Source: Candidatus Woesebacteria bacterium RBG_13_46_13 (GTDB taxonomy: Bacteria > Patescibacteriota > Microgenomatia > UBA8517). From it: 64,000 nucleotides of DNA. Numbering within the stretch: position 1 is the first letter of the stretch; each line of letters begins with the position of its first letter. The position numbers and the translations under genes are program-made. Shown here in pieces: positions 44,183 to 62,375 of this stretch. Where the stretch lies: assembly GCA_001791995.1 (NCBI GenBank), contig MGFR01000003.1, positions 89,543-153,542 of the forward strand, read 5' to 3'. Below the pieces are notes generated by a model. The model was given only the letters and a program-made list of their open reading frames with translations. It was not told the origin of the DNA and did not search any database.

Positions 44183-44211
44183 TTGCTTCTGAGGCTATCC
44201 AGGTATATACT
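44183..44211 (+). promoter_or_regulatory. Canonical sigma70-type promoter TTGCTT-N17-TATACT for the GC-rich orphan gene
   Basis: Read directly from the sequence. Followed by AAGGAGG 7 nt before the ATG at 44260. Confidence 0.5.
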
Positions 44212-44259
44212 ATGGGCCTGCACATTGACAGGCGAAGCGCAAACAAACAAGGAGGAAGT

Positions 44260-44697: not shown

Positions 44698-44787
44698 CAA
44701 GTCCAAGGAAGGACTCTTTTCAGGCCTCTGCCTGAAAATCGTGCGCTTCGCCTGTCCTTCCTTTCAATGGTATAATTCCAGTTAATT

Positions 44788-47835: not shown

Positions 47836-48177
47836 TTAGTCCTCACTGTTTGAATTTATATCACGACTGGTCTGTATACTTTTTCCCAATGAATTAAATG
47901 CTTTAATAAGGCCCTTGAGATCGAAAGTCCTTTCAACAAGTACCTCCATTCGAGCTAAAATTTTTGCAATTATCCGATACTGTTTTACTGTAAATATAGT
48001 TTTAATTTCTGTCGCAAAATGTTGCATTTCCTTACTCGTAGGTTGCTCGCCATATCTATAAACAGTTGATCTGTTAATACCCAAAAATTCAGCTATTTCA
48101 ATCGCGGAATAGTTTAGATCGAGAAGTGTCTTCGCGATTACTTTTTTCTGCTCTTTAGATACAAGGTCGATATCCAT
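47836..48177 (-). CDS. Small HTH protein (resolvase/transposase-type HTH)
   Basis: YSAIEIAEFLGINRSTVYRY helix-turn-helix. Promoter TTGCAA-N18-TGTAAT upstream on the minus strand. Flanked by long non-coding stretches. Confidence 0.5.
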   Translation of the reverse strand: MDIDLVSKEQKKVIAKTLLDLNYSAIEIAEFLGINRSTVYRYGEQPTSKEMQHFATEIKTIFTVKQYRIIAKILARMEVLVERTFDLKGLIKAFNSLGKSIQTSRDINSNSED

Positions 48178-48493: not shown

Positions 48494-49432
48494 CTATTGG
48501 GTAATAGTAATATTACCCGTGTCCAAACCAGTCCTGGCCGTACCAACACAGGTACTCTCGTTAGGGAAGTCGCCCGGCCAATTTTCCCAAGTATCATATA
48601 CAACTGGCCCGATACCATTTTCATTCTGGAATATTGTCACCCGTACGGTGTCTTTTGTATTCGGAGACCCAAAGTCGCCGGCTCGGAAAATCATCGAGTA
48701 ACCAGGTACACCATTCCACACGCCGTTGATAGTAAAGTTAACCGCGTCATTACAGCTGACGTCGTCTCCATCGAAAAAGTTTAACGCAGCAACATCGCTA
48801 CCATGAAACACTGATTTATCTAACCCTTCTACACTTACATTATGTAAGTTAACCTGAAAATCAGCCACAAGTGAATCATCGGAGTATTGATTTACCCAAC
48901 CACCAAAACTGACGTCGAACCAATCTTTGCGTTTAGCGCCTTCCTCTCCTTGTAGCAAATGGCCACCTCCATTAACGGAAGCAACAACAACAGGTGGGGT
49001 TTCGACCTCAAACCTTGTCCAGTCAAAACGCTCGTCCCTTTCGGCACCGAACACCATGCGAACTTCTACATATTCGTTTGCTGGAATTGTTAGGGTTTCA
49101 CTACTGTTGAACTCGCAAATATACGGATAAAGACCGTCAATTATTGCTGTGTTGTAATTTATTCCGCCGTTTTCTGCAAGTATCTGGGTAGTATCACCGT
49201 CAGTCCTGTACTCGAAACAGCTATAAAAGGCTCTTGTACTGATAAACTGTAAATCCGTTGTACCCACACCCATACTGAGCTGGTCAACATGTGCCCAGCC
49301 GTTTGTGCGATTAATATCGTTAGTGCTGGGTGTTACGGGGTTTACGTCAGCCTTAGTAATACCGGCGAACCCAAATACCAACGCCAAAACAAGTAACCCT
49401 CCAAGAACTCCTTGAATTATATTTTTTCTCAT
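48494..49432 (-). CDS. Secreted hypothetical protein
   Basis: ATG at 49432 preceded by GGAAGGAGGTGA. Signal peptide MRKNIIQGVLGGLLVLALVFGFAGITKA. No family recognised. Confidence 0.6.
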   Translation of the reverse strand: MRKNIIQGVLGGLLVLALVFGFAGITKADVNPVTPSTNDINRTNGWAHVDQLSMGVGTTDLQFISTRAFYSCFEYRTDGDTTQILAENGGINYNTAIIDGLYPYICEFNSSETLTIPANEYVEVRMVFGAERDERFDWTRFEVETPPVVVASVNGGGHLLQGEEGAKRKDWFDVSFGGWVNQYSDDSLVADFQVNLHNVSVEGLDKSVFHGSDVAALNFFDGDDVSCNDAVNFTINGVWNGVPGYSMIFRAGDFGSPNTKDTVRVTIFQNENGIGPVVYDTWENWPGDFPNESTCVGTARTGLDTGNITITQ

Positions 49433-49456
49433 TTTTTTCACCTCCTTCCTACACCA

Positions 49457-49480
49457 ATAAAAAACCGCCTCGACGGCGGT
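49457..49480 (-). terminator. Intrinsic terminator-like hairpin (ACCGCC-GTCGA-GGCGGT + T7) on the minus strand, immediately upstream of the 49432 gene promoter/SD
   Basis: 6-bp GC stem followed by a T-run on the minus strand. The plus strand has no T-run. Confidence 0.5.
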
Positions 49481-49657
49481 CGCTAACTACCAACAATGTG
49501 GTAAGGAAAGTTCATTGGTATAACTTCCTTTACCTATAGTCCTCTTTTTCCTTATCCTTGTCAATGACTTTGAAATTTGGCTTACAAAAAGTTCGGAACA
49601 AGTAATCGTAGGTCACCGCGCAAGGATGCTATAATCCTCCAAAAGGCCACCCTGTAA

Positions 49658-51145
49658 ATGAAATTGTCCAGTAAGTATTCTAACTTTATTATTTATTTGC
49701 TGATTGTTTTGTTATCCCTTGCCTATTTTTCTTTTTTTCTAAATAAGGGTCTTACCGTTTATGATGAGGGGTACATAGTTGAATCCTCATACCTGACTTA
49801 TCTTGGAAAAATTCCCTACAAAGATTTCTATTTTCAATACACTCCGCTGACAGCCTGGGTTGGGACTATCGTGTTTAAAATATTCGGGGTAGGAATACTG
49901 AAGCTCAGGTGGCTCGCGCTTGTTATCTCATTGGCTACGGTTCTTTTGGGATATGAAATTACCAAAGAGTTAGCGGGCAAAAAAAACGCACTTCTGATTG
50001 CTTTAGCGCTTATCGCATGGGGTTTCCCCCACGCAAATTTCCTTTGGCCTTCATCCTTAAGCCTGCTCTTCCTCTTAGTTACCACCTTGTGCTTCATCAG
50101 ATACAGCGAAACAAAAAACCTTCGCTATTTTTCGTTGGCGGGAATTGCCGTGTGGGGGAATATTTTAACCAAGCAGAATCTGGGCACAGTATCGCTCGTC
50201 ACATCTATAGTTTTTATACTCCTTATCTGTCGAGGGAGGTTGGTAAAAGGGTTTCTACATTTTCTAATACCGTTTATTGCCATCGCGGGCGTTAGCCTTT
50301 CTATCATCTTACTAAGTAATCCCGATTTCACGGGCATAAAGGAATTGTTTTTTCGCTCGCTCATGGCAGCTCGGGGGCAGACTTTATATTCTCCTTATCC
50401 AATGTTAAGTAAGTTGCCGAGTAATCTTGGTGAAATATTCAAGTGGGTTATAAAGACCTATCTATACTTAACACCAATATTCTTCATTACAATTCTAGGG
50501 TTGAGTCTTTTTATAAAGAGGAGCATTAAACCGCTTCTTGTGGGCATTTTTATTTCCTCGGTATTCCACTTTCTTCTAGTGGTATGGCCGACAGCCGATC
50601 TTGCCCATTTTACCTTTGGAGTTCCCTGTGTCCTGTTGGTCTTTATGGTTGCAACCCTAGTTTATAAAGGACCAATCAGGAAATTTGCCCTGCTATCAAT
50701 CTTTCTGTTTATACTCATAGGGTTTTATAAGACTTTATTTATGAGCTATTACACTTTCGAAACCCCTTATCTAAGGCTTAGAGATCCGGTGACTATAAGG
50801 GGAGAAACAATAATTGTTGATGAAAAATATAAAACTATTGTGGACTTTTTAAACGACAATAAGGATGGTCTTTTTGTCAACAGATCGATATTTGTTTACT
50901 CATATGCCCCCATGGTATATTTCATCTTGGACAAAGAGCCGCCGACACGCGAGCTCTATACTGTAGAAAACTTGCTATCTAAGGAAGCATTGGTCAAGGT
51001 GGTAGAGGATCTGGGACAAGCGAAAACCGACCTCGTCTTATTAGAAACCTGGAGAGAAAAGGATTCTGACATAACCCGGCTTATTAGACAAAATTATCGA
51101 AAGATCGAGACGGTTTGGGATTTTGAGATTCTTGCAAGGAAGTAG
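49658..51145 (+). CDS. GT39/GT83-like integral membrane glycosyltransferase (PMT/ArnT-like)
   Basis: Multi-TM protein whose N-terminal loop carries the YDEGYIVESSY aromatic/acidic motif typical of the GT-C fold. 495 aa. Confidence 0.6.
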   Translation: MKLSSKYSNFIIYLLIVLLSLAYFSFFLNKGLTVYDEGYIVESSYLTYLGKIPYKDFYFQYTPLTAWVGTIVFKIFGVGILKLRWLALVISLATVLLGYEITKELAGKKNALLIALALIAWGFPHANFLWPSSLSLLFLLVTTLCFIRYSETKNLRYFSLAGIAVWGNILTKQNLGTVSLVTSIVFILLICRGRLVKGFLHFLIPFIAIAGVSLSIILLSNPDFTGIKELFFRSLMAARGQTLYSPYPMLSKLPSNLGEIFKWVIKTYLYLTPIFFITILGLSLFIKRSIKPLLVGIFISSVFHFLLVVWPTADLAHFTFGVPCVLLVFMVATLVYKGPIRKFALLSIFLFILIGFYKTLFMSYYTFETPYLRLRDPVTIRGETIIVDEKYKTIVDFLNDNKDGLFVNRSIFVYSYAPMVYFILDKEPPTRELYTVENLLSKEALVKVVEDLGQAKTDLVLLETWREKDSDITRLIRQNYRKIETVWDFEILARK

Positions 51146-51148
51146 TGT

Positions 51149-52027
51149 ATGCAAAAGACAAATCGTTCCAAAAACATTTGCCCGGTATGTAAAAACTCTC
51201 GTATAACCGAATACTGGGCTATGCCGGGCTATAAGCTGGCGAAATGTCCCAAATGCGAGACGGTTTGGGACAAGTTACCCCCCGAAGAGATCTCCGCTAT
51301 TTACGATAAAACCTACTTTATAAATGAAAACCCAAAGGGTGGTTACGCTAATTATTTTGAGGCGATGAGAATTAACCGTAAAACATTTTCGGGCAGATTA
51401 GAAAAAATCGAAAAAACATTGGGCAAAAAAGGCACACTTCTCGATGTCGGCTGTGCCTTGGGAGATTTTCTTGCCGAAGCTAAGACTAGAGGATGGAAAG
51501 ACATCCAGGGAATCGAAATTTCGCATTATGCCGTGGTTTTTGCCAGGGGAAAAGGCCTCAAGGTTAACGAGGGGGTTCTGGAGAATAATTCTTACCCACC
51601 CAACTTCTTCGAAGTTGTTACCTACCAAGACGTAATAGAGCATATTCCAAACCCAAAGGATGAGTTAAAGAAGGCTTACAAGATACTGAAACCCGGTGGG
51701 ATTATCTTCCTTGTTACCCCCGACGTGCGGGGTCTTTGGGCAAAATTATTAGGTCCCCTTTGGTATCATTACAAACCCCGTGAACACATACTCTACTTTT
51801 CTAAAAAGAGCATCGAGGTGGCGCTTGCAAAAGCAGGGTTTAAAAATATCTTAGTGAGAAATACCTATCATGTTTTTTCTCTCGAATATATTTTGAATCG
51901 CCTCCGCTATTACCAGCCTAATTTTTTCGAATTCTTATTGAAGATGGTAAGAAAGACCAAAGTAAAGAACCTCCCGTTTAAGCTCTACACTGGAGAAATT
52001 GAGGCCTGGGGACAAAAACTTCCTTAA
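51149..52027 (+). CDS. Class I SAM-dependent methyltransferase with an N-terminal zinc ribbon
   Basis: CPVCKN...CPKCETVW ribbon. Motif I LLDVGCALGDF. Motif post-I GIEIS. Confidence 0.75.
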   Translation: MQKTNRSKNICPVCKNSRITEYWAMPGYKLAKCPKCETVWDKLPPEEISAIYDKTYFINENPKGGYANYFEAMRINRKTFSGRLEKIEKTLGKKGTLLDVGCALGDFLAEAKTRGWKDIQGIEISHYAVVFARGKGLKVNEGVLENNSYPPNFFEVVTYQDVIEHIPNPKDELKKAYKILKPGGIIFLVTPDVRGLWAKLLGPLWYHYKPREHILYFSKKSIEVALAKAGFKNILVRNTYHVFSLEYILNRLRYYQPNFFEFLLKMVRKTKVKNLPFKLYTGEIEAWGQKLP

Positions 52028-52149
52028 CTTCTACCATATTATCTGAAGTGGTGTAACCAAAGAAGAAAGATCTGGTGGGGCGGAAGCGGGACACAAGCGG
52101 AGGTTATCCGTTTATGCGCGCTTACACGCCCCACCGTGCACCCGAGGTG

Positions 52150-52368
52150 CTACTTGCGAAAGAACTGCACCATGGCAATGAGCAGGATGGCGATGGCAGC
52201 CCAGAAGGCGAAGAACGGGATGAAGATGGAGAGCAATCCCCCACCTTCGACAACCGTCACCGTGGACTTCACGATCTGCGCCTCTTCCCAGGCGAAAGCC
52301 GCCAGGATTCCAGCCACCGTGCAGATGATCAACCAGCTCAACCTCTTGGCGATAAAGCCGGTAGTCAC
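52150..52368 (-). CDS. Small two-TM membrane protein (about 72 aa), hypothetical, GC-rich
   Basis: GTG start at 52368, 5 nt after AAGGAGG. Two hydrophobic helices. Perfect promoter upstream. The track ORF extends to 52446 across the promoter. Confidence 0.5.
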   Translation of the reverse strand: MTTGFIAKRLSWLIICTVAGILAAFAWEEAQIVKSTVTVVEGGGLLSIFIPFFAFWAAIAILLIAMVQFFRK

Positions 52369-52395
52369 GAGAACCTCCTTTTTAGGTGCGAAATT

Positions 52396-52446
52396 TGTCC
52401 TATTTAGGACATAGGATATTATACCCCCCACCCGCGAAGATATCAA
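52396..52446 (-). promoter_or_regulatory. Minus-strand promoter TTGATA-N17-TATAAT, with the inverted repeat TGTCCTA-N2-TAGGACA (52396-52411) over the predicted transcription start
   Basis: -35 at 52441-52446 and -10 at 52418-52423 (minus-strand sense), read directly. The IR is a candidate operator. Confidence 0.5.
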
Positions 52447-52453
52447 CTATAGG

Positions 52454-52482
52454 TTGATTTTTGGCCTTGACCGTGCTACAAT
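52454..52482 (+). promoter_or_regulatory. Divergent plus-strand promoter TTGATT-N17-TACAAT for the 52515 gene
   Basis: Read directly. About 33 nt leader with AAGGAGG 5 nt before the ATG. Confidence 0.45.
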
Positions 52483-52514
52483 TCCCCATTCGCTCTTTTC
52501 CATAAGGAGGAATC

Positions 52515-53045
52515 ATGGAGACCAAGCAGCAGAGAGTTGGTCGCGCCTTTTCCGTTCTGGCAATCATCGTCATGTTCGGGCTCGTGGTGGGTCTATCCTG
52601 GAGTGATCTGGGGGAGAAAACCTCGACCTTTTCGGTCTGGATTCCCGCCCCAGAGCCTCCGGAAGAAACCGCCAGACTCCTGGCGCGTTGGCAAAGTGAA
52701 GGTGGGCTGGAGTGGTCAATAGAGGAGTTCCTATCCTTCACTCCTCACCCCGCCTTCGTTTTTCCCATGGAGGATGAATTCGGCAGGGAAGTACTAACCT
52801 ACGTGGGAGAGTTCGGACCTGATTACCCGCTGATGTTCGCTCGGGGGTTCATAAGGATGCCTTTCAGACACTACGTGAACTATCCCAACCATCAGTGGAA
52901 CCTTGAACCTGAAGGGCCCAGAGGAGCCAACCTGATCCTGCATTCGTGGGGCTACGGTTTCCTACCCTGGTCCCTGGCGGTCATCCTGATCTGTATCATG
53001 CTCTACGGCTGGTACCGGATCCGCCTCTGGCTGAGGAGCCTCTAA
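52515..53045 (+). CDS. Hypothetical membrane protein (N- and C-terminal TM helices), GC-rich
   Basis: Strong SD. Helices AFSVLAIIVMFGLVVGL and LPWSLAVILICIMLYGW. No recognisable domain. Confidence 0.55.
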   Translation: METKQQRVGRAFSVLAIIVMFGLVVGLSWSDLGEKTSTFSVWIPAPEPPEETARLLARWQSEGGLEWSIEEFLSFTPHPAFVFPMEDEFGREVLTYVGEFGPDYPLMFARGFIRMPFRHYVNYPNHQWNLEPEGPRGANLILHSWGYGFLPWSLAVILICIMLYGWYRIRLWLRSL

Positions 53046-53071
53046 TTCCCGGAAAGGAGCAATAAGCACCC

Positions 53072-53126
53072 TGAAGACGCAAGTCTTCCGACACGAAAGT
53101 GTTGAAAAAAGGGTGCTTTGCTTTTT
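53072..53126 (+). repeat. Copy A of a ~53-nt structured 3'-end element: two GNRA-capped hairpins (GAAGAC-GCAA-GTCTTC ; CGACAC-GAAA-GTGTTG), then A6-GC-rich-T6
   Basis: Shares a 24-nt identical core (TTCCGACACGAAAGTGTTGAAAAA) with copy B at 56292-56344. Sits 27 nt after the stop of the 52515 gene. Confidence 0.6.
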
Positions 53127-53193
53127 TAATTGAAGAACAAGGTTGCGCACCGGGTGGTGTTTCAGCGGTTAATCCGCATCGCAACCTTCTGAC

Positions 53194-53583
53194 CTACTTC
53201 CAGAACTCCCACCACTTCTTCGCCGGGATATTGGGGATGGCAATCATCCTCTTCCCCAGTGGGGGTGGGGCTGCCTTGCCGGAACGGGCTGCATTCTCCT
53301 GCTTTAGGAGCTCCCTGGACTTCTCCGGCAGAACCCCGGCCTCGTTGGCGTAGAAGCGGAACCAATAGGGCAGGGACTTGCGAATTCCTGCTTCCTGGCT
53401 GGTATCCACGACCATACGCCAGACGACCACCGTCGCGTCCTGGGGCATCAGCATCTGCTGACTCTTGATGAGGAATCCCCGAACCTCCCTTTCGACCTTG
53501 ACAATTGCCTGGTTTGCCACCTTCAACAGCACGTCTCTGTCCTTGCTGTCGAAGTCGAGCCAGAACTCCAAAGTCATGTCCAT
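53194..53583 (-). CDS. Hypothetical protein, GC-rich
   Basis: SD AAGGAGG 6 nt before the ATG at 53583. 129 aa. No family recognised. Confidence 0.5.
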   Translation of the reverse strand: MDMTLEFWLDFDSKDRDVLLKVANQAIVKVEREVRGFLIKSQQMLMPQDATVVVWRMVVDTSQEAGIRKSLPYWFRFYANEAGVLPEKSRELLKQENAARSGKAAPPPLGKRMIAIPNIPAKKWWEFWK

Positions 53584-53669
53584 CGCCGGCCTCCTTTAGG
53601 GCTTAGGGTATGAATTCTGGAAATTGTGAATGCGCGAAAAGACGGCCTATTTTAACACAATTAGACCAT

Positions 53670-54311
53670 TTATGAAGTTTTGAGGTAGGAGATAAGCTTG
53701 ACCGCTATTATATATAGAACGGCCGGAACAGAGAAAATGTAGAAAATCACAAAAGGGAAAGAGCGGGAATCGCTACCGATAAAGAAGGAATGCACCGCAA
53801 CCAACAAGAACACCGCATAATTTAGGATGTGGAACTTTCTCCAGTTTTCCCTCCACCAGGGCAAGGTTCTAAGTTTGGCTGCCAAAACAGCCGCCGAGAC
53901 CAGCCAAAACGATAGTCTTCCAAGGGTATAGAAAAATTCCGGGCGGGTTTTACACATCAGGCAAAAATCGGTAAAAACATAAAAGGGATCAATGACGTGC
54001 CTGGCGATGTAGTTAAAGACCAAAAGAGCCAGGGGGTGAAGAAGAATTAGACTATAAGCCACTGCCCCTTCGGTCAGGTGCCATTTAAAGACCCAGGCTC
54101 CTAGCTTCTCTATCCATTTCTGCATAAAAGAGCCCAAAACAACCTGCCAGAAAAGAAGGACAAAGGCCACTAGCCCCACAACTCTTTGGATAAGATTCAC
54201 AACAAGCAGGTTGTTTAAAGGAACGGGAGATCTAAGAATAAAAATCAAAACGGTAACCGGACCAAGGAGAATGGATAGAAGCCAGACAAGAAGAAAGAGC
54301 TTTTTGTTCAT
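53670..54311 (-). CDS. Six-TM membrane protein with a bis-heme His pattern like ferric-reductase/MsrQ-type transmembrane domains
   Basis: His pairs spaced 13-14 residues apart in predicted TM3 (WHLTEGAVAYSLILLH) and TM5 (FHILNYAVFLLVAVH). Codon usage is AT-richer, matching the host. A TATAAT sits 7 nt before the ATG (leaderless-like). Confidence 0.5.
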   Translation of the reverse strand: MNKKLFLLVWLLSILLGPVTVLIFILRSPVPLNNLLVVNLIQRVVGLVAFVLLFWQVVLGSFMQKWIEKLGAWVFKWHLTEGAVAYSLILLHPLALLVFNYIARHVIDPFYVFTDFCLMCKTRPEFFYTLGRLSFWLVSAAVLAAKLRTLPWWRENWRKFHILNYAVFLLVAVHSFFIGSDSRSFPFVIFYIFSVPAVLYIIAVKLISYLKTS

Positions 54312-54324
54312 TGAAGTAATTATA

Positions 54325-54368
54325 ACAAAAAAAGAGCCTGATCTTTGGCTTATGCCTCAATCAGGCTC
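54325..54368 (-). terminator. Intrinsic terminator (GAGCCTGAT...ATCAGGCTC 9-bp stem + T7) after the 54932-54375 gene
   Basis: Read directly. The T-run is on the minus strand. Confidence 0.65.
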
Positions 54369-54374
54369 CTACTC

Positions 54375-54932
54375 CTAGTACGACAACTCGTCCCACAGGG
54401 GACAGCGAGGAATATACCTCCATCTCTCCCCTTCCTCGAGCCGGCGAACGAAAGCGAACCCGCGGCATTCGAGACCCGGGAAAACAATGAGGTCGGCAAT
54501 GAACGCCTCGTGGTTATCCTCACGTTCGGATTCGGCGACGGCATAGGAAAAGCGCCGGATGTCGAAGACATACTCCTTTCCGACTCTGTCGTCGTAGGCG
54601 TTCATGCTGACATCCCAACCGCTATGAGCCAGGTCAAGCGTGAACATGACCTTGGTAGTACCGTCGAAGGCTGTAGGCCGAAATCCCAATCTCAACCTTC
54701 CGTGCCACCGCCATTCCGGGGCCAGTATGTGCGTAGAATCGAGAGAAGCGAAGAGTCCGAAATAGTACGTTTCTCTCCACATCTCTTCGGTCCTCATCAC
54801 ATCCGGCTGTATCGCTGTAATCAATCCCGGAAAGGGACTCTCCCACCCCTCGTGTACGGGTACGTCCGTGTTGGGGAAGAAGGCGATGATGACGACAGCC
54901 AACGGAACGATCCAAAGCAGATGCTTTTTCAT
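54375..54932 (-). CDS. Secreted hypothetical protein, GC-rich
   Basis: SD AGGAGG. Signal peptide MKKHLLWIVPLAVVIIAFF. 185 aa. Confidence 0.55.
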   Translation of the reverse strand: MKKHLLWIVPLAVVIIAFFPNTDVPVHEGWESPFPGLITAIQPDVMRTEEMWRETYYFGLFASLDSTHILAPEWRWHGRLRLGFRPTAFDGTTKVMFTLDLAHSGWDVSMNAYDDRVGKEYVFDIRRFSYAVAESEREDNHEAFIADLIVFPGLECRGFAFVRRLEEGERWRYIPRCPLWDELSY

Positions 54933-54964
54933 AGCTCCTCCTTTGATTTTGTAAGAGTGCGACT

Positions 54965-55006
54965 CTAGGATAGCGATATTATAGTCCTAGGTATATGAAA
55001 TATCAA
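54965..55006 (-). promoter_or_regulatory. Minus-strand promoter TTGATA-N17-TATAAT for the 54932 gene. The inverted repeat CTAGGA-N14-TCCTAG (54965-54990) brackets the -10.
   Basis: -35 at 55001-55006, -10 at 54978-54983 (minus sense). The IR shares the TAGGA/TCCTA half-site with the 52396-52411 IR. Confidence 0.5.
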
Positions 55007-55037
55007 ATTATAGGCTTAGACCTAAACATACAAATTC

Positions 55038-55066
55038 TTGCTAAATTTGAGGCTATAGGGTATAAT
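55038..55066 (+). promoter_or_regulatory. Plus-strand promoter TTGCTA-N17-TATAAT for the 55122 gene. The leader contains a small hairpin TCCGC-TCGG-GCGGA (55074-55087).
   Basis: Read directly. Back-to-back with the minus-strand promoter. Confidence 0.5.
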
Positions 55067-55121
55067 ACTGGCATCCGCTCGGGCGGAAATTCGCACTTTT
55101 CAATACTCATCAGGAGGAACT

Positions 55122-56276
55122 ATGGCCAAACGTGAAGGACGCTGGGACTGCCGCTCATGCGGCACGAAAGGCGTGAGAGGGCGTTTCAAGTACTGTTCGC
55201 AGTGCGGAAGCCCCCGTCCCGCCAACGTCAAGTTCTACCTCCCGGAAGGAGAACCGGAGGTAACCGATCCGAAACTCCTGGCCCTTGCAGGTGCAGGTCC
55301 AGACTGGACTTGCGAGCACTGCAGCCAGGACAATGTCGGCACTTCCGCTTTCTGCGGACAGTGCGGTGCCAAAAAGGACGGGAGCCCTTCCCGTAAAACC
55401 AAGACCTACGGTCTTGGAAGCATTCCCCGCTCGGGAGATGAATTCCCCGAAGAGGAAAAACCCGCATCCGCGGTTTATTCCCAGGAGACAAGTACGCCGA
55501 AGGGCAGTCTCTTTTCTAAACTGAAGATCCCTGCGGCTATTTGTGCAGGAGCGGCCTTTCTGGGTCTTTTGGGATTTCTGCTTTTCGCACGCCACGACGT
55601 GCCCTTGACCGTCTCGGGCTTCGCCTGGGAAAGAACGGTCACCGTCGAAGAGTACCGCACTGTCGTGGAAGAGGATTGGTCCATCCCCGCCGGAGGCAGA
55701 TACCAAAGCGAGGGACAGGCTATCCACCACTACGACAGCGTTGAGGTCGGGTCCCATCAGGAACCGTATCAAGACTGTCATCAGGAAGTTTCTGGCTCGC
55801 ATCAGGAGTGCAGCCAAGAAGTTACAGGCTACGACTCCTATGTCTGCGGGAGCAGTGATGACGGCAATGGTTTCTTTTCGGATGTTTACTGCGACCGGCC
55901 TGAGTACTCGACCGTCTGTGACTCGGTCACGGACTACTCGACCGTCTGTGACACCTTGTACCGAACGGTCACGGATTACGAGCAGGTACCCGTCTACGCG
56001 ACGAGGTATACCTACGAAATTGAACGTTGGGTCTTTGACCGAACCGAGGTTTCGCAGGGGTCGGACCATACGGCCTTTTGGCCTCCCTTCACCCTTGAGG
56101 ATAACGAGAGGGAGTCGGGGAGGAACGAGGCCTACGAAGTTCTCTTCGTCGACGACGAGGAGAAAACCTACTCCTATACGGTTGATTTAGCCGCTTGGCA
56201 GATCTTCGAGGTCGGCCAGAACTATACCGGCAAGGTCAACACCTTAGGAGTACTGACAGAAGTATCCGATGAGTAA
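55122..56276 (+). CDS. Membrane protein with an N-terminal double zinc ribbon (two CxxC...CxxC pairs), one TM helix and an acidic Cys/His-containing C-terminal domain with internal repeats
   Basis: CRSCGTKGVRGRFKYCSQCG and CEHCSQDNVGTSAFCGQCG. TM AAICAGAAFLGLLGFLLF. In-frame 18-bp perfect direct repeat TACTCGACCGTCTGTGAC at 55905 and 55935 (YSTVCD x2). Strong SD. Confidence 0.6.
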   Translation: MAKREGRWDCRSCGTKGVRGRFKYCSQCGSPRPANVKFYLPEGEPEVTDPKLLALAGAGPDWTCEHCSQDNVGTSAFCGQCGAKKDGSPSRKTKTYGLGSIPRSGDEFPEEEKPASAVYSQETSTPKGSLFSKLKIPAAICAGAAFLGLLGFLLFARHDVPLTVSGFAWERTVTVEEYRTVVEEDWSIPAGGRYQSEGQAIHHYDSVEVGSHQEPYQDCHQEVSGSHQECSQEVTGYDSYVCGSSDDGNGFFSDVYCDRPEYSTVCDSVTDYSTVCDTLYRTVTDYEQVPVYATRYTYEIERWVFDRTEVSQGSDHTAFWPPFTLEDNERESGRNEAYEVLFVDDEEKTYSYTVDLAAWQIFEVGQNYTGKVNTLGVLTEVSDE

Positions 56277-56291
56277 GACAAGAAGCGCCCC

Positions 56292-56344
56292 GAATCCGCA
56301 AGGATTCCGACACGAAAGTGTTGAAAAAGGGGCGCTTGTTTTTT
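56292..56344 (+). repeat. Copy B of the structured 3'-end element (GAATCC-GCAA-GGATTC ; CGACAC-GAAA-GTGTTG ; A5-GGGGCGCTTG-T6). Abuts the 3' end of tRNA-Val on the opposite strand.
   Basis: The first hairpin differs from copy A on both arms (GAAGAC/GTCTTC to GAATCC/GGATTC) yet stays perfectly paired. Lies 16 nt after the stop of the 55122 gene. Confidence 0.6.
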
Positions 56345-56349
56345 GGAGG

Positions 56350-56421
56350 TGGTCGCTGAGGGATTCGAACCCCCGGCCTTCGCAATGTGAATGCGACGCT
56401 CTACCGCTGAGCCAAGCGACC
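56350..56421 (-). tRNA. tRNA-Val (anticodon CAC)
   Basis: Reverse complement folds with acceptor GGTCGCT/AGCGACC, D-arm GCTC-AGCGGTA-GAGC, anticodon stem TCGCA/TGCGA with loop TTCACAT, T-arm GGGGG-TTCGAAT-CCCTC, discriminator A. Confidence 0.8.
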
Positions 56422-56527
56422 CTGTGTAATCCAATATTATATCACCCTAGAGATTTTCACTGCCAGTTGACAGACCTTTTCACCAGCGTATAAAGTTAAA
56501 TGTAATGATTCATATCATTACACAAAT

Positions 56528-57607
56528 ATGGATCAGAAGTTTCCCCTAGGCCTTTCCTTCGACGATGTGCTGCTTATCCCCCGCTATTCGGAAATTGCCT
56601 CCCGCGAAGATGTTGATCTCACTACCCGAATTACTCCCAAGCTCACCCTCAAGCTTCCCCTTTTAAGCGCCAACATGACTGATGTGACCGGTATTAAAAT
56701 GGCTGTGACCTTGGGCAAACTCGGGGCTCTTGGAGTCCTCCCCCGTTTTATGAGCGCCGAGGATGAAGCGGATATGGTTGCGGCCGTCAAAAAAGAGGGG
56801 TTAACCGTTGCGGCCGCGGTTGGCTTACGAAACGGAATGTTTGATCGGGCGGAGCAGCTGGTCAAAGCCGGAGCCGAAGTTTTGTTTCTTGACGTTGCCC
56901 ACGGACACATGCGCAAGGCAACCGAGGCAACCAAGAAACTTAGGCAAAAATTCGGTAAAAGTGTTGATATCGTCTCCGGAAATATCGCCACCTACGATGG
57001 TGCGGACGCTCTTTTCAGGGCCGGAGCCGATTGCGTCAAGGTCGGGGTTGGACCGGGAACCATTTGTATTACTAGGATCGAAACGGGTTTTGGGGTACCG
57101 CAAATGTCGGCCATCTTGGAAGCCGCAAGGGCAGCCAGGCGCCACCGAAAGACAATAATCGCCGACGGAGGAACTAAAAACTCCGGTGATGTAGTTAAAG
57201 CTCTGGCAGCGGGTGCATCGGCTGTCATGGCTGGTAGCCAGTTTGCCGGAACAGATGAGGCCCCCGGAGAAAAAATAACCCTAAAAGGTAAGGATTTTAA
57301 GAGGTACTACGCTTCTACTTCCTTTAAGGAAAAGAAAAATCATATCAAGAAAAACGGAGAGAATTTGTCCCAGGATTACGCAAAACACATCGAAGGAATT
57401 GAAAGTATGGTCCCTTATAAGGGCCCTGTTAAGGAAATTCTTGAAAAAATGTCAGCTAATATCCGCTCCGGTCTTTCCTACTGTGGTGCAAAGGAATTAT
57501 TGGACTTGTGGAGAAAGGCAAAATTTGTAAGAATAACCTCCCAAGGCTTAAAGGAAAGCGGACCGCACGATGTGGTAGTTAATGAAAACGGATGGCGGAA
57601 CAAATAG
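56528..57607 (+). CDS. IMP dehydrogenase/GMP reductase family enzyme lacking a CBS subdomain (GuaC/GuaB-like)
   Basis: Catalytic Cys loop [20 protein letters not shown], phosphate-binding [24 protein letters not shown]. 359 aa, a size typical of GMP reductase. Confidence 0.7.
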
Positions 57608-58953
57608 ATGAACACAAGCTTACTGCCATCTCTCCTGTCGATGGCCGCTATGGCCGACTAACCGCCCCGCTCTCCCCTTTCTTTTCGGAATTTGCCCTGA
57701 TTAAAAAGAGAGTTGAAGTTGAGCTAAAATTTCTTCTTTATCTCTCGGAGAGCCGATTAATAAGAGGGTTCACCCAAAAAGAAAAGGCATATCTACAAAA
57801 ATTAATTTCGGATTTTTCCTTAAGAGACGGGTTGATGGTAAAAAAGATAGAAAACACCACCCACCATGACGTTAAAGCGGTAGAATATTTTCTAAGAGAA
57901 AAATTTCAGAAAAGCTCTTTCAAAGGTACCATTCCCTATCTGCATATCGGGTTAACCTCCGAGGATATTAACAATATCTGCTGGCGATGTCTTGCCCAAG
58001 AAGCGCTTATCAAAGTTCTTTTACCCGAACTCTTGTCAATCCATAAAAACCTCCGTACGTTTGCCCGTACTTACAGGAATTTGGCAATGCTCGGCCGCAC
58101 ACACGGACAAGCGGCTATTCCCACGACAATGGGAAAAGAGGTTGCGGTTTTTAGCCAAAGACTTGAGGCTCAAATAACATCTTTAAAAACCCTCAAATTC
58201 TCAGCAAAATTTTCAGGTGCGGTAGGGGGTTGGAACGCGCTCTGTCTTGTCTTTCCTTCCGTAAACCTTCCTGCCTTTAGCCGCCGTTTTGTGAAATCTT
58301 TCGGACTTGAATTTCATGTTCTTACAACGCAAATTGCCCCCAATGACGATATTGTCGAACTGCTGCAGACTCTTGAGCGGATCAATCTCGTCCTGATCAA
58401 TTTAAATCAGGATCTTTGGAGATATGTCTCCGACGGCTGGCTTATCCAAAAAAGTAAAGCCGGGCAGGTAGGCTCATCCACCATGCCCCAGAAGGTAAAC
58501 CCCATCGATTTCGAAAACAGTGAGGGAAATCTTTTCTTCGCAAACGGAATCGCAACAACCATCGTTTCCAAAATTGCTATCTCCAGACTTCAGAGGGACT
58601 TATCCGGCTCAACGGTCCTGAGAAACCTCGGCGTTGCCTTTGCCCACAGCCTTGTCGGCTATTTATCTTTATTAAAAGGGCTGGATAATATTTCTCCCGA
58701 CAAAGAAAAAATAGTTGGAGAGTTAAATTCTGACTGGAGAATACTTGCCGAAGCCCTGCAGGTTATATTAAGAAAAGAGGGAGATACGAAGGCCTTTGAA
58801 AAAGTTGCGGCTTTGACAAAAAAGGGCATCTGGAAACAAGAAGATTGGCGAGAAGTTGTCGAGTCTTTTCGGCTAACCGCCAAATCGAAAAATCTACTTT
58901 TAAAATTAAGGCCCGAGGGGTATATTGGTCTTTCGGGAAAAATCGTTAAATGA
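57592..58953 (+). CDS. purB: Adenylosuccinate lyase
   Basis: Fumarate-lyase signature GSSTMPQKVNPIDFEN. 453 aa. 16-nt overlap with the upstream gene. Confidence 0.85.
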   Translation: MAEQIDEHKLTAISPVDGRYGRLTAPLSPFFSEFALIKKRVEVELKFLLYLSESRLIRGFTQKEKAYLQKLISDFSLRDGLMVKKIENTTHHDVKAVEYFLREKFQKSSFKGTIPYLHIGLTSEDINNICWRCLAQEALIKVLLPELLSIHKNLRTFARTYRNLAMLGRTHGQAAIPTTMGKEVAVFSQRLEAQITSLKTLKFSAKFSGAVGGWNALCLVFPSVNLPAFSRRFVKSFGLEFHVLTTQIAPNDDIVELLQTLERINLVLINLNQDLWRYVSDGWLIQKSKAGQVGSSTMPQKVNPIDFENSEGNLFFANGIATTIVSKIAISRLQRDLSGSTVLRNLGVAFAHSLVGYLSLLKGLDNISPDKEKIVGELNSDWRILAEALQVILRKEGDTKAFEKVAALTKKGIWKQEDWREVVESFRLTAKSKNLLLKLRPEGYIGLSGKIVK

Positions 58954-60245
58954 CAGAAAGATTGTCAAGGTGGCGCGGGACCAATGTCGTACTGGATACT
59001 ACCTGGGGAGATTCAGGTAAGGGAAAACTCGTCGATGTTATGGCCCAAAGAGCCAAGATGGTGGTGCGTTTTAATGGCGGACCCAATGCCGGGCACACCG
59101 TAAAAAACGAACATGGGGAATTTAAATTTCACCAGATTCCCTCGGGAATATTCAATCCCGAAGCAATCTCTGTTATCGCGCAGACGGTTGCGGTCAACCC
59201 CAATGTGCTACTGGGAGAAATTGCAGAGCTTAAGGCCAAAGGAATAGAAGTTAGCAAAGCCAACCTTCTCGTCTCGGAGGAAGCCCACCTGATCATGCCT
59301 TGGCACATTCAAAGGGATAGGCTGAGGGAAACTGCCAGGGGGGAAGAAAAAATCGGTACAACGGGTCAAGGAATAGGGCCTGTTTTTGCCGACAGAACCG
59401 AAAGGGTCGGCTTAAAAGTTAAAGATATCTTAGACCCCCGCCTACCGGAGATTCTGGCGAAAGAGCTTGCCTGGCAAGAAAAGCTGACCCAATTAATGCT
59501 GGATACTTCCGAACCCCAATACGATTACGACAGTATACTTGAAGATTTACGCAAGGCCGCGGATACACTTGCCCCCATAATCTCCCAGGTTCTCCCTCTT
59601 ATTCGGCTCTTCCATAAGCGGGGCAATAACATCTTGGGGGAAGGAGCACAGGGAGCGCTCTTGGATTTGGATTTGGGTGGCTATCCTTTCGTGACCTCCA
59701 CCCACCCCACTCTATCGGGATTTTCCCAGGCGACCGGAATATATGCGAATATCTCAAGAATCATAGGGGTTACCAAGGCTTATCAAACCAGGGTCGGCGA
59801 AGGCCCGATGCCCACCGAGCTTGAAAACGAGATCGGTGCAACCTTAAGAGAGCGTGGCAAGGAATACGGTGCCACAACGGGAAGGCCCAGAAGGTGTGGT
59901 TGGATAGATATTCCGGCGATAAGATACGGGGCGATGATAAGCGGCGTAAAATCCTTGGCTATCACCAAGCTCGATGTACTGGATAGCTTCGACGAAATTC
60001 GAATCTGTGCGGCCTACCGTGACCACGGACACGATTACAAATTTGGATACCCCGATACGATGGCGAGGGCGGTCCCTATCTATATAAATCTTAAAGGCTG
60101 GCGCGAGGACACTTCCGGGGCCAAAGACATTAGGTCGCTACCTGAAAAATGCAGCTTTTATCTTACGACCATTCAGGAACTGGTAGGATTACCCGTGGAG
60201 TTTGTATCCGTCGGGCCGGAGAGAAACCAAAGCATTTACCTTTAG
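58950..60245 (+). CDS. purA: Adenylosuccinate synthetase
   Basis: P-loop TTWGDSGKGKLVD, GTTGQGIGP. 431 aa. ATGA start/stop overlap with purB. Confidence 0.9.
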   Translation: MTERLSRWRGTNVVLDTTWGDSGKGKLVDVMAQRAKMVVRFNGGPNAGHTVKNEHGEFKFHQIPSGIFNPEAISVIAQTVAVNPNVLLGEIAELKAKGIEVSKANLLVSEEAHLIMPWHIQRDRLRETARGEEKIGTTGQGIGPVFADRTERVGLKVKDILDPRLPEILAKELAWQEKLTQLMLDTSEPQYDYDSILEDLRKAADTLAPIISQVLPLIRLFHKRGNNILGEGAQGALLDLDLGGYPFVTSTHPTLSGFSQATGIYANISRIIGVTKAYQTRVGEGPMPTELENEIGATLRERGKEYGATTGRPRRCGWIDIPAIRYGAMISGVKSLAITKLDVLDSFDEIRICAAYRDHGHDYKFGYPDTMARAVPIYINLKGWREDTSGAKDIRSLPEKCSFYLTTIQELVGLPVEFVSVGPERNQSIYL

Positions 60246-60289
60246 AGTTTCTCTTGTATTTGCTCCGCTAAGATAACTATAATTACATT

Positions 60290-60853
60290 ATGTTTAGGCG
60301 TTTTGGCGCATTTTTTTTGGACATTTTAGAGGTCGTTGTCCTGGCTTTCGCCATATTCCTTTTTTCTTATCTCTTTATCTTTCAACCCCACAAAATAGAC
60401 GGCAACAGCATGGAGCCCAATTTCCACGACAAGGAATATCTCTTAACCGATAAGGTCAAATATAAAATATTGAAGGAAAGCCCCCAAAGGGGTGATGTTA
60501 TCGTTTTCATTCCTCCTCTGGAGCGGGATAAGGAATACATCAAAAGAATTATCGGGCTTCCGGGAGAAACGGTTTCGATAAAAGAAGGCAGAATCATAAT
60601 CAATGGAGAAATTCTTGAAGAAACCTATCTTTCGGCAGGAACACCGACCTCGGGCGCTTACTTTCTACAAGAAGGAGAGATTGCCACCGTTCCTCCCGAC
60701 GAATACTTTGTAATGGGCGATAACCGGGCCAATTCTTCGGACTCACGTTATTGGGGCTTTGTTCCAAAAAAAGATTTGGTGGGAAGGGCTTGGTTGGTTT
60801 ATTGGCCTCCGCAGGAAACAAGAAAAGTAAAAGCTGCCAATTATAACTTCTAA
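60290..60853 (+). CDS. lepB: Signal peptidase I
   Basis: Catalytic Ser box (GNSMEPNF) and Lys box (YIKRIIGLPGE). 187 aa. TATAAT 6 nt before the ATG. Confidence 0.85.
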   Translation: MFRRFGAFFLDILEVVVLAFAIFLFSYLFIFQPHKIDGNSMEPNFHDKEYLLTDKVKYKILKESPQRGDVIVFIPPLERDKEYIKRIIGLPGETVSIKEGRIIINGEILEETYLSAGTPTSGAYFLQEGEIATVPPDEYFVMGDNRANSSDSRYWGFVPKKDLVGRAWLVYWPPQETRKVKAANYNF

Positions 60854-60855
60854 GG

Positions 60856-61707
60856 TTATTCGGTGAGGGCTTTATATACTTTTTGAAGTCTGTTTTCCGT
60901 TTCTTCCAATCCACCCTTAAAGACAAAGGTCACTCTGGTTTCGCGTCTTGAACGTACCAACTTAACCTGTGTCTTTTTTGTCTCGTCTGTCCCCTCTTCG
61001 CTTAAGGCTTCCTGGATATCGCTTTGCATCTTGTCTATCTCTTCGGAAACAATCTGCAGCATTTTTCTGGCGGAACCCGAACCCTGTCGCTCCACCGACT
61101 GCTTGGATTTGGCTTTCATTCTTCGGGCCAGCTCCTCCGCCCGCCTGACCGAACCGGATTCCCTGAGAATTATTTTGTAAGCCTCAACCATCAAGGGCTG
61201 ATCGTCAATTGCAGCCAAGGCTCTGGCGTGGCCTTCGGAGATAAGACCCGATAGGAGTCCGTCCTTAAGCGCATCCGGAAGCGATAATAGCCTTATCGAG
61301 TTCGAGACATAGGCGACCGACTTGCCGATTCTGACCGCGATTTCGCTGGTGGTTAAACCGAATTCGTTCATCAGTCTTTCAAACCCTTTGGCCCTGTCCA
61401 GCGGATTTAAATCGACCCTCTGAACGTTCTCAACCAAGGCCATCTCCAGCATTCCCTTGGGGGAGGTTTCGCGGATAATTGAAGGAAGGTGGGTCATTCC
61501 CGCCAATTTGGCTGCGCGCCATCTGCGCTCACCGGCAATTATTTGATAACCCGCGGGAGTCTTGGCCACGACCAAAGGCTCAAGAATTCCGTGCTCTCTG
61601 ATGGAATCCACCAAATCCACCAAGCTCTCGGGGGTAATTGCACCCCGGGGTTGTAAAGGGTTGGGTTGCAATTCGTTGACTTCTATTTGGACAACTTCTT
61701 CTGCCAT
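60856..61707 (-). CDS. parB: ParB/Spo0J-like partition protein
   Basis: ParB N-terminal box (LEPLVVAKTPAGYQIIAGERRWRAAKLAG) and HTH. Confidence 0.8.
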   Translation of the reverse strand: MAEEVVQIEVNELQPNPLQPRGAITPESLVDLVDSIREHGILEPLVVAKTPAGYQIIAGERRWRAAKLAGMTHLPSIIRETSPKGMLEMALVENVQRVDLNPLDRAKGFERLMNEFGLTTSEIAVRIGKSVAYVSNSIRLLSLPDALKDGLLSGLISEGHARALAAIDDQPLMVEAYKIILRESGSVRRAEELARRMKAKSKQSVERQGSGSARKMLQIVSEEIDKMQSDIQEALSEEGTDETKKTQVKLVRSRRETRVTFVFKGGLEETENRLQKVYKALTE

Positions 61708-61709
61708 AT

Positions 61710-61955
61710 TTATATTACCGAAACTATATTTCGACCTTTTCTTTTACCGAATTTCACTTTGCCTTTAGCCACGGAGTAGATTGTGTGGTCTCGCCCTACC
61801 GCCACGCCTTTACCCAAACCGATATGGGTTCCCCTCTGGCGGATAATAATCATTCCAGGGGCTACTTTCGTTCCGTCGGAGGCCTTCACTCCCAATCTTT
61901 TTCCTTCGGGGCTAATGTGTTGTGAGGCTTTGCCTGCAGCTTTCTTGTGAGCCAT
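61710..61955 (-). CDS. rpmA: Ribosomal protein L27
   Basis: MAHKKAAGKAS...GMIIIRQRGTHIGLGKGV canonical L27. Confidence 0.95.
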   Translation of the reverse strand: MAHKKAAGKASQHISPEGKRLGVKASDGTKVAPGMIIIRQRGTHIGLGKGVAVGRDHTIYSVAKGKVKFGKRKGRNIVSVI

Positions 61956-62033
61956 TTCAAAACAATATAGACAATATTTTCACAGCTGTCAAGAGATTAG
62001 AAGTTTATAGATTGATACACTAACAAGGAGAAA

Positions 62034-62339
62034 TTATTTGGAAGTAATCTTACCAATCTGTATTTTGGTATAAGAATGTCTAAAGCCCGTATGTCTTCGG
62101 TAGCGGCTTTTGGACCTGTATTTGATCACCTCGACCTTTTGACCCTTCTCTTCCCCCAATATTTTATAGCTGACCTTTGCTCCGGCAATCACTGGCGTTC
62201 CGACCGTGACCTTATCTCCATCGGCAACAAGAAGAACCGCTGGAGCTTCTTCTTCCTGAAGCCTATCCACCAAAAGTTCGTCTCCTTCGGAAACTTTGTA
62301 TTGGTGACCCGATATTTGGACGATTGCGTATTTTGCCAT
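62034..62339 (-). CDS. rplU: Ribosomal protein L21
   Basis: MAKYAIVQISGHQYKVSEGDELLVDRL canonical L21. Confidence 0.9.
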   Translation of the reverse strand: MAKYAIVQISGHQYKVSEGDELLVDRLQEEEAPAVLLVADGDKVTVGTPVIAGAKVSYKILGEEKGQKVEVIKYRSKSRYRRHTGFRHSYTKIQIGKITSK

Positions 62340-62375
62340 GTAACTTTGATATTCTACCGCCCATTGGCCTTAAAC

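Follow-up and report, generated by a model that had tools for sequence, protein, structure and literature searches.

The locus described here occupies positions 52030-56349 of a 64,000-nucleotide stretch of DNA (the window) from contig MGFR01000003.1 of Candidatus Woesebacteria bacterium RBG_13_46_13, a small-genome groundwater bacterium of the Patescibacteria or candidate phyla radiation (CPR), and consists of five GC-rich genes placed around one resident membrane-protein gene in DNA with a GC content of 46.3%. In order, it carries the gene for a 72-aa peptide with two transmembrane (TM) segments and a GTG start (52150..52368, minus strand); a unit that is present or absent among relatives and comprises a promoter, a Shine-Dalgarno (SD) site, the open reading frame (ORF) of a 176-aa protein (52515-53045) and the first copy of a structured 3' element (52459..53132, plus strand); the gene for a 129-aa soluble protein (53194..53583, minus strand); the resident gene for a 213-aa polytopic membrane protein (53670..54311, minus strand); the gene for a 185-aa protein with an N-terminal signal or anchor (54375..54932, minus strand); and the gene for ZnR, a 384-aa protein that carries two RanBP2-type zinc ribbons at its N-terminus, a single TM helix (residues 134-158) and a beta-rich ectodomain (55122..56276, plus strand). 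The second copy of the 3' element follows ZnR and runs up to the tRNA-Val(CAC) gene (56348..56421, minus strand), whose 3' end faces and abuts the island, in agreement with the position beside a tRNA gene given in an earlier note on this DNA. That note had read the region as a single horizontally acquired cassette, and the comparison with related genomes requires a different description.

Six versions of the locus were compared in the common orientation membrane gene, cassettes, tRNA-Val and IMP dehydrogenase (IMPDH); L001 is a contig of GCA_035256625.1, L002 comes from GCA_001792165.1, L005 and L099 are ENA contigs and L098 is a JGI contig. Identical copies of the 384-aa protein and the adjacent IMPDH are on record for RBG_13_46_13 and GCA_035256625.1, with a near-identical copy in RBG_19FT_COMBO_47_8. 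The gene content of L002 (99.8% identical) is that of the window, namely the 72-aa, 176-aa and 129-aa genes, the membrane gene, the 185-aa gene and ZnR. L001, at 99.9% identity, lacks exactly window positions 52459-53132, that is the promoter, the 176-aa ORF and the 3' element, and its empty site keeps a proper U-tract for the converging terminator of the 129-aa gene. L005 (88-93% nucleotide identity) has no 176-aa unit, carries an extra 143-aa gene, and has a 146-aa lipoprotein gene in place of ZnR; at this slot, conservation of the divergent promoter and the 5' untranslated region (5'UTR) extends to within about 12 nt of the start codon, and the identical 3' element is retained, so that only the SD site and the ORF have been swapped. 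In L003 (IMPDH 81% identical in amino acids), ZnR stands in the same place with 73% amino-acid identity and a GC content at third codon positions (GC3) of 0.67, and the 185-aa gene is absent. In L087 (IMPDH region 74% identical in nucleotides), the slot next to the tRNA is occupied by a gene whose product is homologous to the 176-aa protein (36% identity, GC3 0.79), and L098 has two cassettes head to tail, each followed by a 3' element. The 72-aa gene is present in L002 and L005, and the 213-aa membrane gene in every relative. Units vary one by one among L001, L005, L003 and L087, and the region is thus a mosaic: at least five transcription units are independent of one another and differ in their history.

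Because independent assemblies cross both borders, a chimeric join can be excluded as the source of this pattern. L002, an independent NCBI assembly from another sample, is colinear with window positions 49416-63045 in a single alignment at 99.8%, and both borders are also crossed by L005 (ENA), L098 (JGI) and L099, a separate ENA assembly of the same more distant relative as L098. The compositional step is sharp and the end of the L001 contig falls inside the island, as would be expected if an assembly chimera or binning contamination were responsible, but the colinearity in L002, L005 and the JGI and ENA assemblies of a distant relative, together with the resident gene within the island, leaves this explanation with a practically negligible probability. 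The 268-kb L001 contig starts at about window position 52290 (L001 1-185), which fits an assembly broken at a variable region by strain heterogeneity.

Lateral movement, as proposed in the earlier note, is demonstrated for at least one gene, ZnR. L098 is a syntenic but distant Woesebacterium; across 12 core genes it shares 36-80% amino-acid identity with the window, with a divergence at 4-fold sites of 0.61-0.79 (saturated) and a GC3 of 0.35-0.41 in L098. ZnR, by comparison, is 88% identical in amino acids and 87% in nucleotides, with a 4-fold divergence of 0.23 and a GC3 of 0.64 in L098; its synonymous divergence (dS) is 0.45, whereas that of IMPDH is saturated. The shared segment, about 87-88% identical in nucleotides and common to L097, L098 and L099, corresponds to window positions 55050..56407 (plus strand) and contains the -10 box, ZnR, the 3' element and the 3' 58 nt of tRNA-Val. 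Beyond this window-type tRNA-Val fragment, at a distance of about 330 nt, L098 has a tRNA-Val(CAC) of its own with a different sequence, and the transferred segment begins within about 20 nt of the upstream 3' element; the two independent assemblies of the L098 locus agree at 99.97%. These observations show directly that ZnR has been transferred between Woesebacteria lineages. The earlier note had held that the same genes at the same locus with the same composition in close relatives would speak against acquisition, and ZnR in L003 is formally such a case; transfer is still supported, since the cassette has diverged less than the core at synonymous sites and an 87%-identical copy exists in a distant lineage. 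Between the window and L003, dS is 1.2 for ZnR against 2.0-3.0 for core genes, and the ZnR copies therefore share a more recent common ancestor than their host genomes do. In the neighbour-joining tree of ZnR, which has no support values, the window and L098 copies pair together and leave L003 outside, in conflict with the core genes.

The base composition of the island sets its genes apart from the rest of the window. As had been noted, GC content rises from 52.03 kb, and 52030-56349 has the highest value among all 4320-bp windows (mean 46.4%, sd 2.1); the level is 52.3% overall and 54.3% without the embedded membrane gene, rather than the 57-60% first reported for the interval. The gene bodies of the five island genes have 55-58% GC, and values of 55-59% are reached only by 300-nt windows inside them. 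The glycosylation cluster that comes before it (46.5-52.0 kb) is unusually AT-rich, with a GC content of 34-46%, and makes the change at 52.0 kb appear more abrupt. The reported richness in GC-ending codons is borne out, as GC3 in the island genes is 0.65-0.82 (0.82 in the 72-aa gene, 0.80 in the 129-aa gene and 0.68 in the 185-aa gene) against 0.485 (sd 0.050, maximum 0.579) in 49 background genes, giving z = 3.3-6.8. GC3 greatly exceeds the GC content at second codon positions in every cassette gene, a pattern typical of genuine genes shaped by a GC-rich background. The GC-rich ORFs are thus compositionally foreign, and the promoters and UTRs around them are AT-rich and common to relatives. 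A recombination hot spot with GC-biased gene conversion was weighed as a cause of the high GC3 and rejected, since the composition of the resident gene, at the centre of the island, is still that of the host.

The high GC3 might instead belong to native genes under selection for a special codon usage, for example through expression level or mRNA stability, in which case no foreign origin would be needed. Two observations speak for such a reading: the GC3 of ZnR stays near 0.65 in the window, L003 and L098 although the copies have diverged, and the promoters and UTRs are of resident type. Yet the ribosomal protein genes L27 and L21 have a GC3 of only 0.45-0.46, the cassette genes vary between strains, and the similarity of ZnR is incongruent with that of core genes. 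Moreover, neither the ZnR nor the 129-aa family is intrinsically GC-rich, because a ZnR gene is AT-rich in an AT-rich host (GC3 0.28 in Vulcanimicrobiota) and a 129-aa homologue has a GC3 of 0.47 in a 45% GC genome. We therefore regard native codon bias as very unlikely.

Among the expression signals of the island genes, AAGGAGG or AGGAGG stands 6-8 nt upstream of the start codon in all five, as had been stated (AAGGAGG for the 72-aa, 129-aa and 185-aa genes). Near-consensus promoters had been reported for four genes, and for three of them this holds: the three best sigma-70-like matches between 44 and 58 kb are TTGATA-17-TATAAT at 52446 (minus strand), the same at 55006 (minus strand) and TTGCTA-17-TATAAT at 55038 (plus strand). 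The first (52418..52446, 11/12 match) serves the 72-aa gene, and the other two form a divergent pair (54978..55066) for the 185-aa gene and ZnR that is 93% conserved in L005. The 176-aa gene has a weaker promoter (TTGATT-17-TACAAT with an extended TG), and the 129-aa gene a 9/12 match (TTCATA-16-TAAAAT). The 5'UTRs of the cassettes are about 45-55 nt long, and several contain a short stem-loop and a ATTCGCAC-type motif. In the ZnR 5'UTR (55067..55121, plus strand), a stem-loop at 55074-55087 is followed by the motif ATTCGCACTTTTC at 55089-55101 and AGGAGG at 55112-55117; L003, L005 and L098 all retain this leader, and their differences in the stem-loop include compensatory ones. Motifs of the ATTCGCAC(T)TTTC type also lie between -10 box and SD site at 52488-52500, 53619-53631 and 54952-54964 and in the UTR of the 72-aa gene, as well as at 55089-55101, and the one at the ZnR slot is kept in L003, L005 and L098. 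At 3 mismatches, ATTCGCACTTTTC shows no enrichment across the window, and only its UTR position is suggestive. The signals resembling those of E. coli are real, but the promoters and 5'UTRs among them are AT-rich resident modules common to relatives.

The contrast with core genes that had been drawn is present but was overstated. About 20 of the 49 core genes (approximately 40%) have a -10-like TANNNT hexamer 4-9 nt before the start and no SD site, while nine have SD-like 5-mers and four AGGAGG, mostly in operon-internal genes. Starts of the TANNNT type include those of 6634-8661, 18970-19479, 21419-22651 and the resident gene 53670-54311. This distribution suggests that leaderless transcripts may be widespread for the first genes of operons, with operon-internal genes using SD sites.

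The structured element at the 3' end, which had been described as used twice, is found in both places (53060-53125 and 56279-56344) with the same fold. Copy 1, as a folded unit with its T-run (53058..53130, plus strand), follows the 176-aa ORF with a predicted folding free energy (dG) of -37.7 (z -7.3), and copy 2 (56283..56346, plus strand) follows ZnR and abuts the 3' end of tRNA-Val with a dG of -33.9 (z -5.5). Beginning 6-12 nt past the stop codon, a 9-bp GC-rich closing stem encloses two hairpins with GCAA and GAAA loops, which gives a three-way junction, and a run of 6-7 T residues follows. A descriptor search of the 1.05 Mb comprising the window and the compared loci found this architecture with a T-tail only at the 3' ends of cassettes, where it follows ZnR, members of the 176-aa family, the 146-aa gene and a 170-aa gene of L097 that occupies the corresponding position without significant sequence similarity to the 176-aa protein. 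In a hand-fitted alignment of five distinct variants, pairing holds for 99% of cells, against 26-45% in slid controls, and compensatory change is seen at 11 of the 21 pairs. Rfam gave no match in 51900-56600 at gathering thresholds or at E <= 5; a 21-mer of the element is absent from the IMG/VR viral contigs, and its exact sequence has zero occurrences in the species-representative genomes, from which the source species itself is probably masked or absent. On the strength of this covariation, the element is a predicted three-way-junction intrinsic terminator and an undescribed RNA motif. Only two of the five island units carry it. The 129-aa gene ends in a branched, two-hairpin terminator-like structure (53133..53193, minus strand, dG -23.1) unrelated to it in sequence, a sixth GC-rich gene at 44.3 kb likewise has a branched two-hairpin terminator of unrelated sequence, and the 185-aa gene has a terminator hairpin at 54334-54368. 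At L098 9857-9950, the -35 hexamer (TTGACT) of the ZnR promoter is formed by the T-run and tail of the element that ends the preceding cassette, so that terminator and promoter overlap at the cassette joint.

The recurrence of this element raises the question of whether the cassettes are mobilised in the manner of an integron, with the 3' element acting as a folded single-stranded DNA recombination site for a recombinase encoded elsewhere. Cassettes of three unrelated families are followed by the element (those of ZnR, of the 176-aa family and of the 146-aa lipoprotein), the indel of the 176-aa unit ends a few nucleotides past it, the replacement in L005 ends exactly at its 5' edge, and in L098 a head-to-tail pair carries elements and the transferred segment starts within about 20 nt of the upstream one. 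However, no recombinase is seen at the locus, three of the island cassettes have no such element, and the units have their own promoters and mixed orientations. The invariant GNRA-type loops, the position 6-12 nt past the stop codon and the U-tract are what an RNA terminator needs, and three breakpoints are too few to argue against homologous recombination between element copies that are 82-100% identical. Site-specific exchange of this kind is in our judgement decidedly improbable.

ZnR is the only island protein with an extended family, and the statement that no product belongs to a recognisable family does not apply to it. It has at least 195 full-length homologues beyond its own lineage at 33-46% identity, and tblastn confirmed relatives at 304 stretches of a one-genome-per-species collection, mostly in Chloroflexota, Gemmatimonadota (Longimicrobium), Acidobacteriota and Cyanobacteria. 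The ribbon cysteines C10, C13, C25 and C28 and C64, C67, C78 and C81 are invariant in 36 aligned sequences; the match to Pfam PF00641, at 24.7 bits, lies just below the cutoff of 27. The predicted model has a pLDDT of 88.6, and the ectodomain is conserved in the full-length alignment. In Chloroflexota, Gemmatimonadota, Acidobacteriota and Cyanobacteria, and also in the AT-rich host with GC3 0.28, the GC content of the ZnR gene equals that of its flanks (-0.01 to +0.06), whereas in three other CPR genomes and a DPANN-like archaeon it exceeds them by 0.09-0.17, with a strong SD site upstream in all four. ZnR is thus GC-foreign in each CPR and DPANN-like genome examined. In the archaeon, whose genome has 37% GC, tRNA-Met and tRNA-Trp are immediately followed by three consecutive genes of 50-54% GC (L007 4253-7143; CAYMPD010000002.1), with SD sites on at least the last two, and the last gene is the closest species-level relative of the window ZnR, at 46% identity. 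CPR copies are scattered in the neighbour-joining tree, where the window clade groups with the archaeal copy. No gene family flanks more than 11 of 80 ZnR loci, and those 11 represent a lineage-specific trpC neighbourhood, so gene order gives no operon-based hint of function. Two short insertions are specific to this Woesebacteria clade within the family, one a 30-nt tandem duplication at 55902-55952 encoding a repeated D(S/T)VTDYSTVC and the other HQEVSGSHQEC.

The remaining cassette proteins are nearly devoid of relatives. The 72-aa protein has a weak match to DUF5654 (E 0.016, below cutoff), and homologues of the 176-aa protein comprise only itself and the 36%-identical L087 relative. For the 129-aa protein there are nine representative-level relatives, one of native composition (GC3 0.47, in the 45% GC genome mentioned above), and its model shows a generic ferredoxin-like alpha+beta fold (pLDDT 75) that is not diagnostic. 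The 185-aa protein is an orphan, with only 99% and 84% identical relatives among 5.8 billion proteins. Searches of PHROGs, NCBIfam and PADLOC returned no meaningful match for any island protein. All products had been called membrane or secreted proteins; hydrophobic segments are present in four of the five, the 129-aa protein having none, and the 176-aa protein has two such segments and is hence not bitopic as labelled. The ratio of nonsynonymous to synonymous substitution (dN/dS) of the 72-aa gene is about 0.87 relative to L005, a value based on few changes. It is 0.19 for the 129-aa gene and 0.28 for the 185-aa gene; the cassette genes apart from the 72-aa one range over 0.19-0.28 and ZnR over 0.15-0.17, compared with 0.02-0.08 in core genes. 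These ratios indicate that the cassette proteins are products of real genes, which evolve 3-10 times faster than core proteins while still under purifying selection.

The resident 213-aa gene, with 44% GC and a leaderless-type start, is of host composition as stated before. Its attribution to heme proteins fits the spacing of H78/H92 and H161/H174 (14 and 13 residues), which lie in TM helices and are invariant in four homologues down to 36% identity, although there is no profile match to the ferric-reductase-like or MsrQ-type bis-heme family, nor any Pfam or NCBIfam match at E <= 0.1. The pattern is consistent with a putative bis-heme membrane protein.

The position of the island at a tRNA gene invites comparison with integrated elements. 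It is conceivable that an integrase-bearing element entered the 3' end of tRNA-Val and that its integrase and att repeats were later lost. The location at a tRNA 3' end and the foreign composition would follow from such an origin, the partial 3' tRNA-Val of L098, about 330 nt from an intact tRNA-Val, resembles an att duplication, and the archaeal ZnR also lies in a GC-rich three-gene block after tRNA-Met and tRNA-Trp. On the other hand, and in line with the earlier note, no integrase domain occurs in any island ORF of the window, nor in the neighbouring ORFs of 38.5-52.0 kb, and no integrase, recombinase or transposase Pfam domain is found among the annotated genes of the five related loci (6-10 kb flanks where the contig allows). 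The 3' 29 nt of tRNA-Val have no second copy in the window with 3 mismatches allowed, and flanking direct repeats were not found. Units vary singly and not en bloc, a resident core gene sits mid-island, and the partial tRNA of L098 is donor-type and contiguous with the transferred cassette rather than a duplicate of the recipient's tRNA. A decayed tRNA-linked island is for these reasons unlikely.

A phage origin, as a prophage remnant or as phage morons left in the chromosome, would account for genes that each have their own promoter and terminator and a composition unlike that of their neighbours. Against it, there is no significant PHROG match, and no confirmed relatives appear in 2.9 million viral contigs searched with three single proteins and the ZnR alignment, one weak 28% partial match to the 176-aa protein aside; ZnR in particular has no relatives in IMG/VR by single-protein or alignment search. 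The 3' element 21-mer is missing from the same contigs, ZnR finds no plasmid match in a PLSDB protein search, and no phage structural or replication genes lie nearby. Such an origin is a very remote prospect.

We propose, as the probable reading, that the interval is a flexible genomic islet beside tRNA-Val(CAC), in which one-gene units around a resident membrane gene are swapped between lineages. Each unit consists of a sigma-70-type promoter, a 5'UTR of about 45-55 nt, a canonical SD site, a GC3-rich ORF and its own predicted intrinsic terminator. Units are gained, lost and replaced between close relatives and pass between distant Woesebacteria. For the most part, incoming DNA would recombine with the conserved non-coding flanks through homology or short homology. 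We infer this route because the mapped breakpoints lie at or beside the 5'UTR, the 3' element and tRNA-Val, and because no recombinase is present at the locus. The products would form a variable set of envelope proteins, small and membrane-anchored or exported together with one soluble protein, which plausibly serves contact with host cells or avoidance of phages and competitors in an episymbiont; like the route, this biological role is our inference.

Several points weigh against this proposal of a flexible islet. The recombination route is drawn from three mapped breakpoints, and an integrase-mediated event would leave just such a partial tRNA-Val as L098 has; exchange might also depend on an integrase supplied in trans or on the 3' element as a specific site. 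The role in envelope variation is a guess from topology and evolutionary rate. The ZnR neighbour-joining tree carries no support values, a donor has been identified for no cassette, and four of the five proteins are almost without homologues, their foreign origin resting on composition and patchy presence only. Finally, the high GC3 of ZnR after long residence (about 0.65 in both the window and L003) is hard to account for without repeated exchange with a GC-rich pool.

A wider generalisation, which we consider quite unlikely, is that Woesebacteria, and perhaps other CPR and DPANN episymbionts, exchange cassettes independently of integrases, with resident expression slots, each made up of a promoter and a conserved 5'UTR, and the portable three-way-junction element as defined recombination joints. 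If true, such slots would accept and exchange foreign GC-rich ORFs for surface proteins, which could move from one lineage to another and possibly between bacteria and archaea, in a functional analogue of the integron built from different parts. In CPR bacteria, whose genomes are tiny and which depend on host cells, surface variation is little understood; the locus provides a sequence-resolved example of gene-by-gene turnover of envelope proteins in Woesebacteria. Its accessory genes are GC-richer than the host, the opposite of the usual AT-rich bias of acquired DNA. The foreign signature of ZnR in other CPR bacteria and a DPANN-like archaeon hints at a shared donor pool or ecology, and the three-way-junction terminator motif could serve to trace such cassettes.

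Variation also extends to the surroundings of the island. The sixth GC-rich gene, of the same style, encodes 145 aa (44260-44697, GC3 0.76, unit 44183-44775) just upstream of tRNA-Thr (44788), with a TTGCTT-17-TATACT promoter, an AAGGAGG SD site and the branched terminator mentioned above; it is absent from the syntenic position in L098 and L099 and has no Pfam, PHROG or NCBIfam match. Between 46500 and 52027 lies the AT-rich surface-glycosylation cluster (Wzy_C ligase-like, GT2, PMT_2 and methyltransferase genes), whose content varies among relatives: L005 has two PMT_2 genes and extra genes between methyltransferase and PMT_2, and L098 has a different set of glycosyltransferases. Two further small GC-rich ORFs of 59 aa (GC3 0.70) and 70 aa, at L005 15257-15658 between the methyltransferase and PMT_2 genes, do not occur in the window. 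A 113-aa helix-turn-helix (HTH) protein (47836-48177, 35% GC), with weak similarity to transposase and resolvase HTH domains and no catalytic domain, is the sole recombinase-like trace near the island. The other side of tRNA-Val (57592-60245) varies as well, with IMPDH-PurB-PurA in the window, IMPDH-PurA in L003, IMPDH followed by a 365-aa adenylosuccinate synthetase without nucleotide-level match in L005, and IMPDH followed by signal peptidase in L098.

Flexible islands of the additive or replacement type, kept by homologous recombination at conserved flanks, are known from marine bacteria and many pathogens. The present locus resembles them in its variable content at a fixed syntenic site, foreign composition, envelope-related products and lack of a linked recombinase; it differs in being only about 4.3 kb long, in being GC-richer and not AT-richer than its host, and in its single-gene units with their own promoter, SD site and terminator, several of which share a structured 3' element. 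With tRNA-linked integrative islands it has in common the tRNA 3' end, the deviant composition, variable presence and a partial tRNA in one relative, whereas it shows no integrase, no att repeats in the window, piecemeal variation and a resident gene inside. The moron was reportedly described by Hendrix and colleagues as an autonomous promoter-gene-terminator unit of deviant composition in lambdoid prophages, and the cassettes are autonomous units of the same make-up and likewise deviant, but they lie outside any phage genome and have no confirmed viral relatives. As with integron attC cassettes, a structured imperfect palindrome stands 3' of unrelated ORFs and units are arranged head to tail in one relative; unlike these, there is no IntI, promoters are the units' own, orientations are mixed and the element is terminator-like (GNRA loops, U-tract). 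ZnR itself matches the uncharacterised family that NCBI names 'Ran-binding zinc finger domain-containing protein' in full-length alignment (35-46%), ribbon cysteines, TM helix and ectodomain motifs, and differs from it by its two short insertions and its foreign composition in the host. Hundreds of genomic islands have been reported from 125 aquifer Patescibacteria genomes, with most single-gene transfers taking place between Patescibacteria (PMC12455944). Since islands of Patescibacteria are already documented there, the locus is a real but fairly ordinary islet and changes no paradigm; its uncommon details are the GC-rich accessory genes, the resident expression slots that take up foreign ORFs and the new three-way-junction terminator motif.

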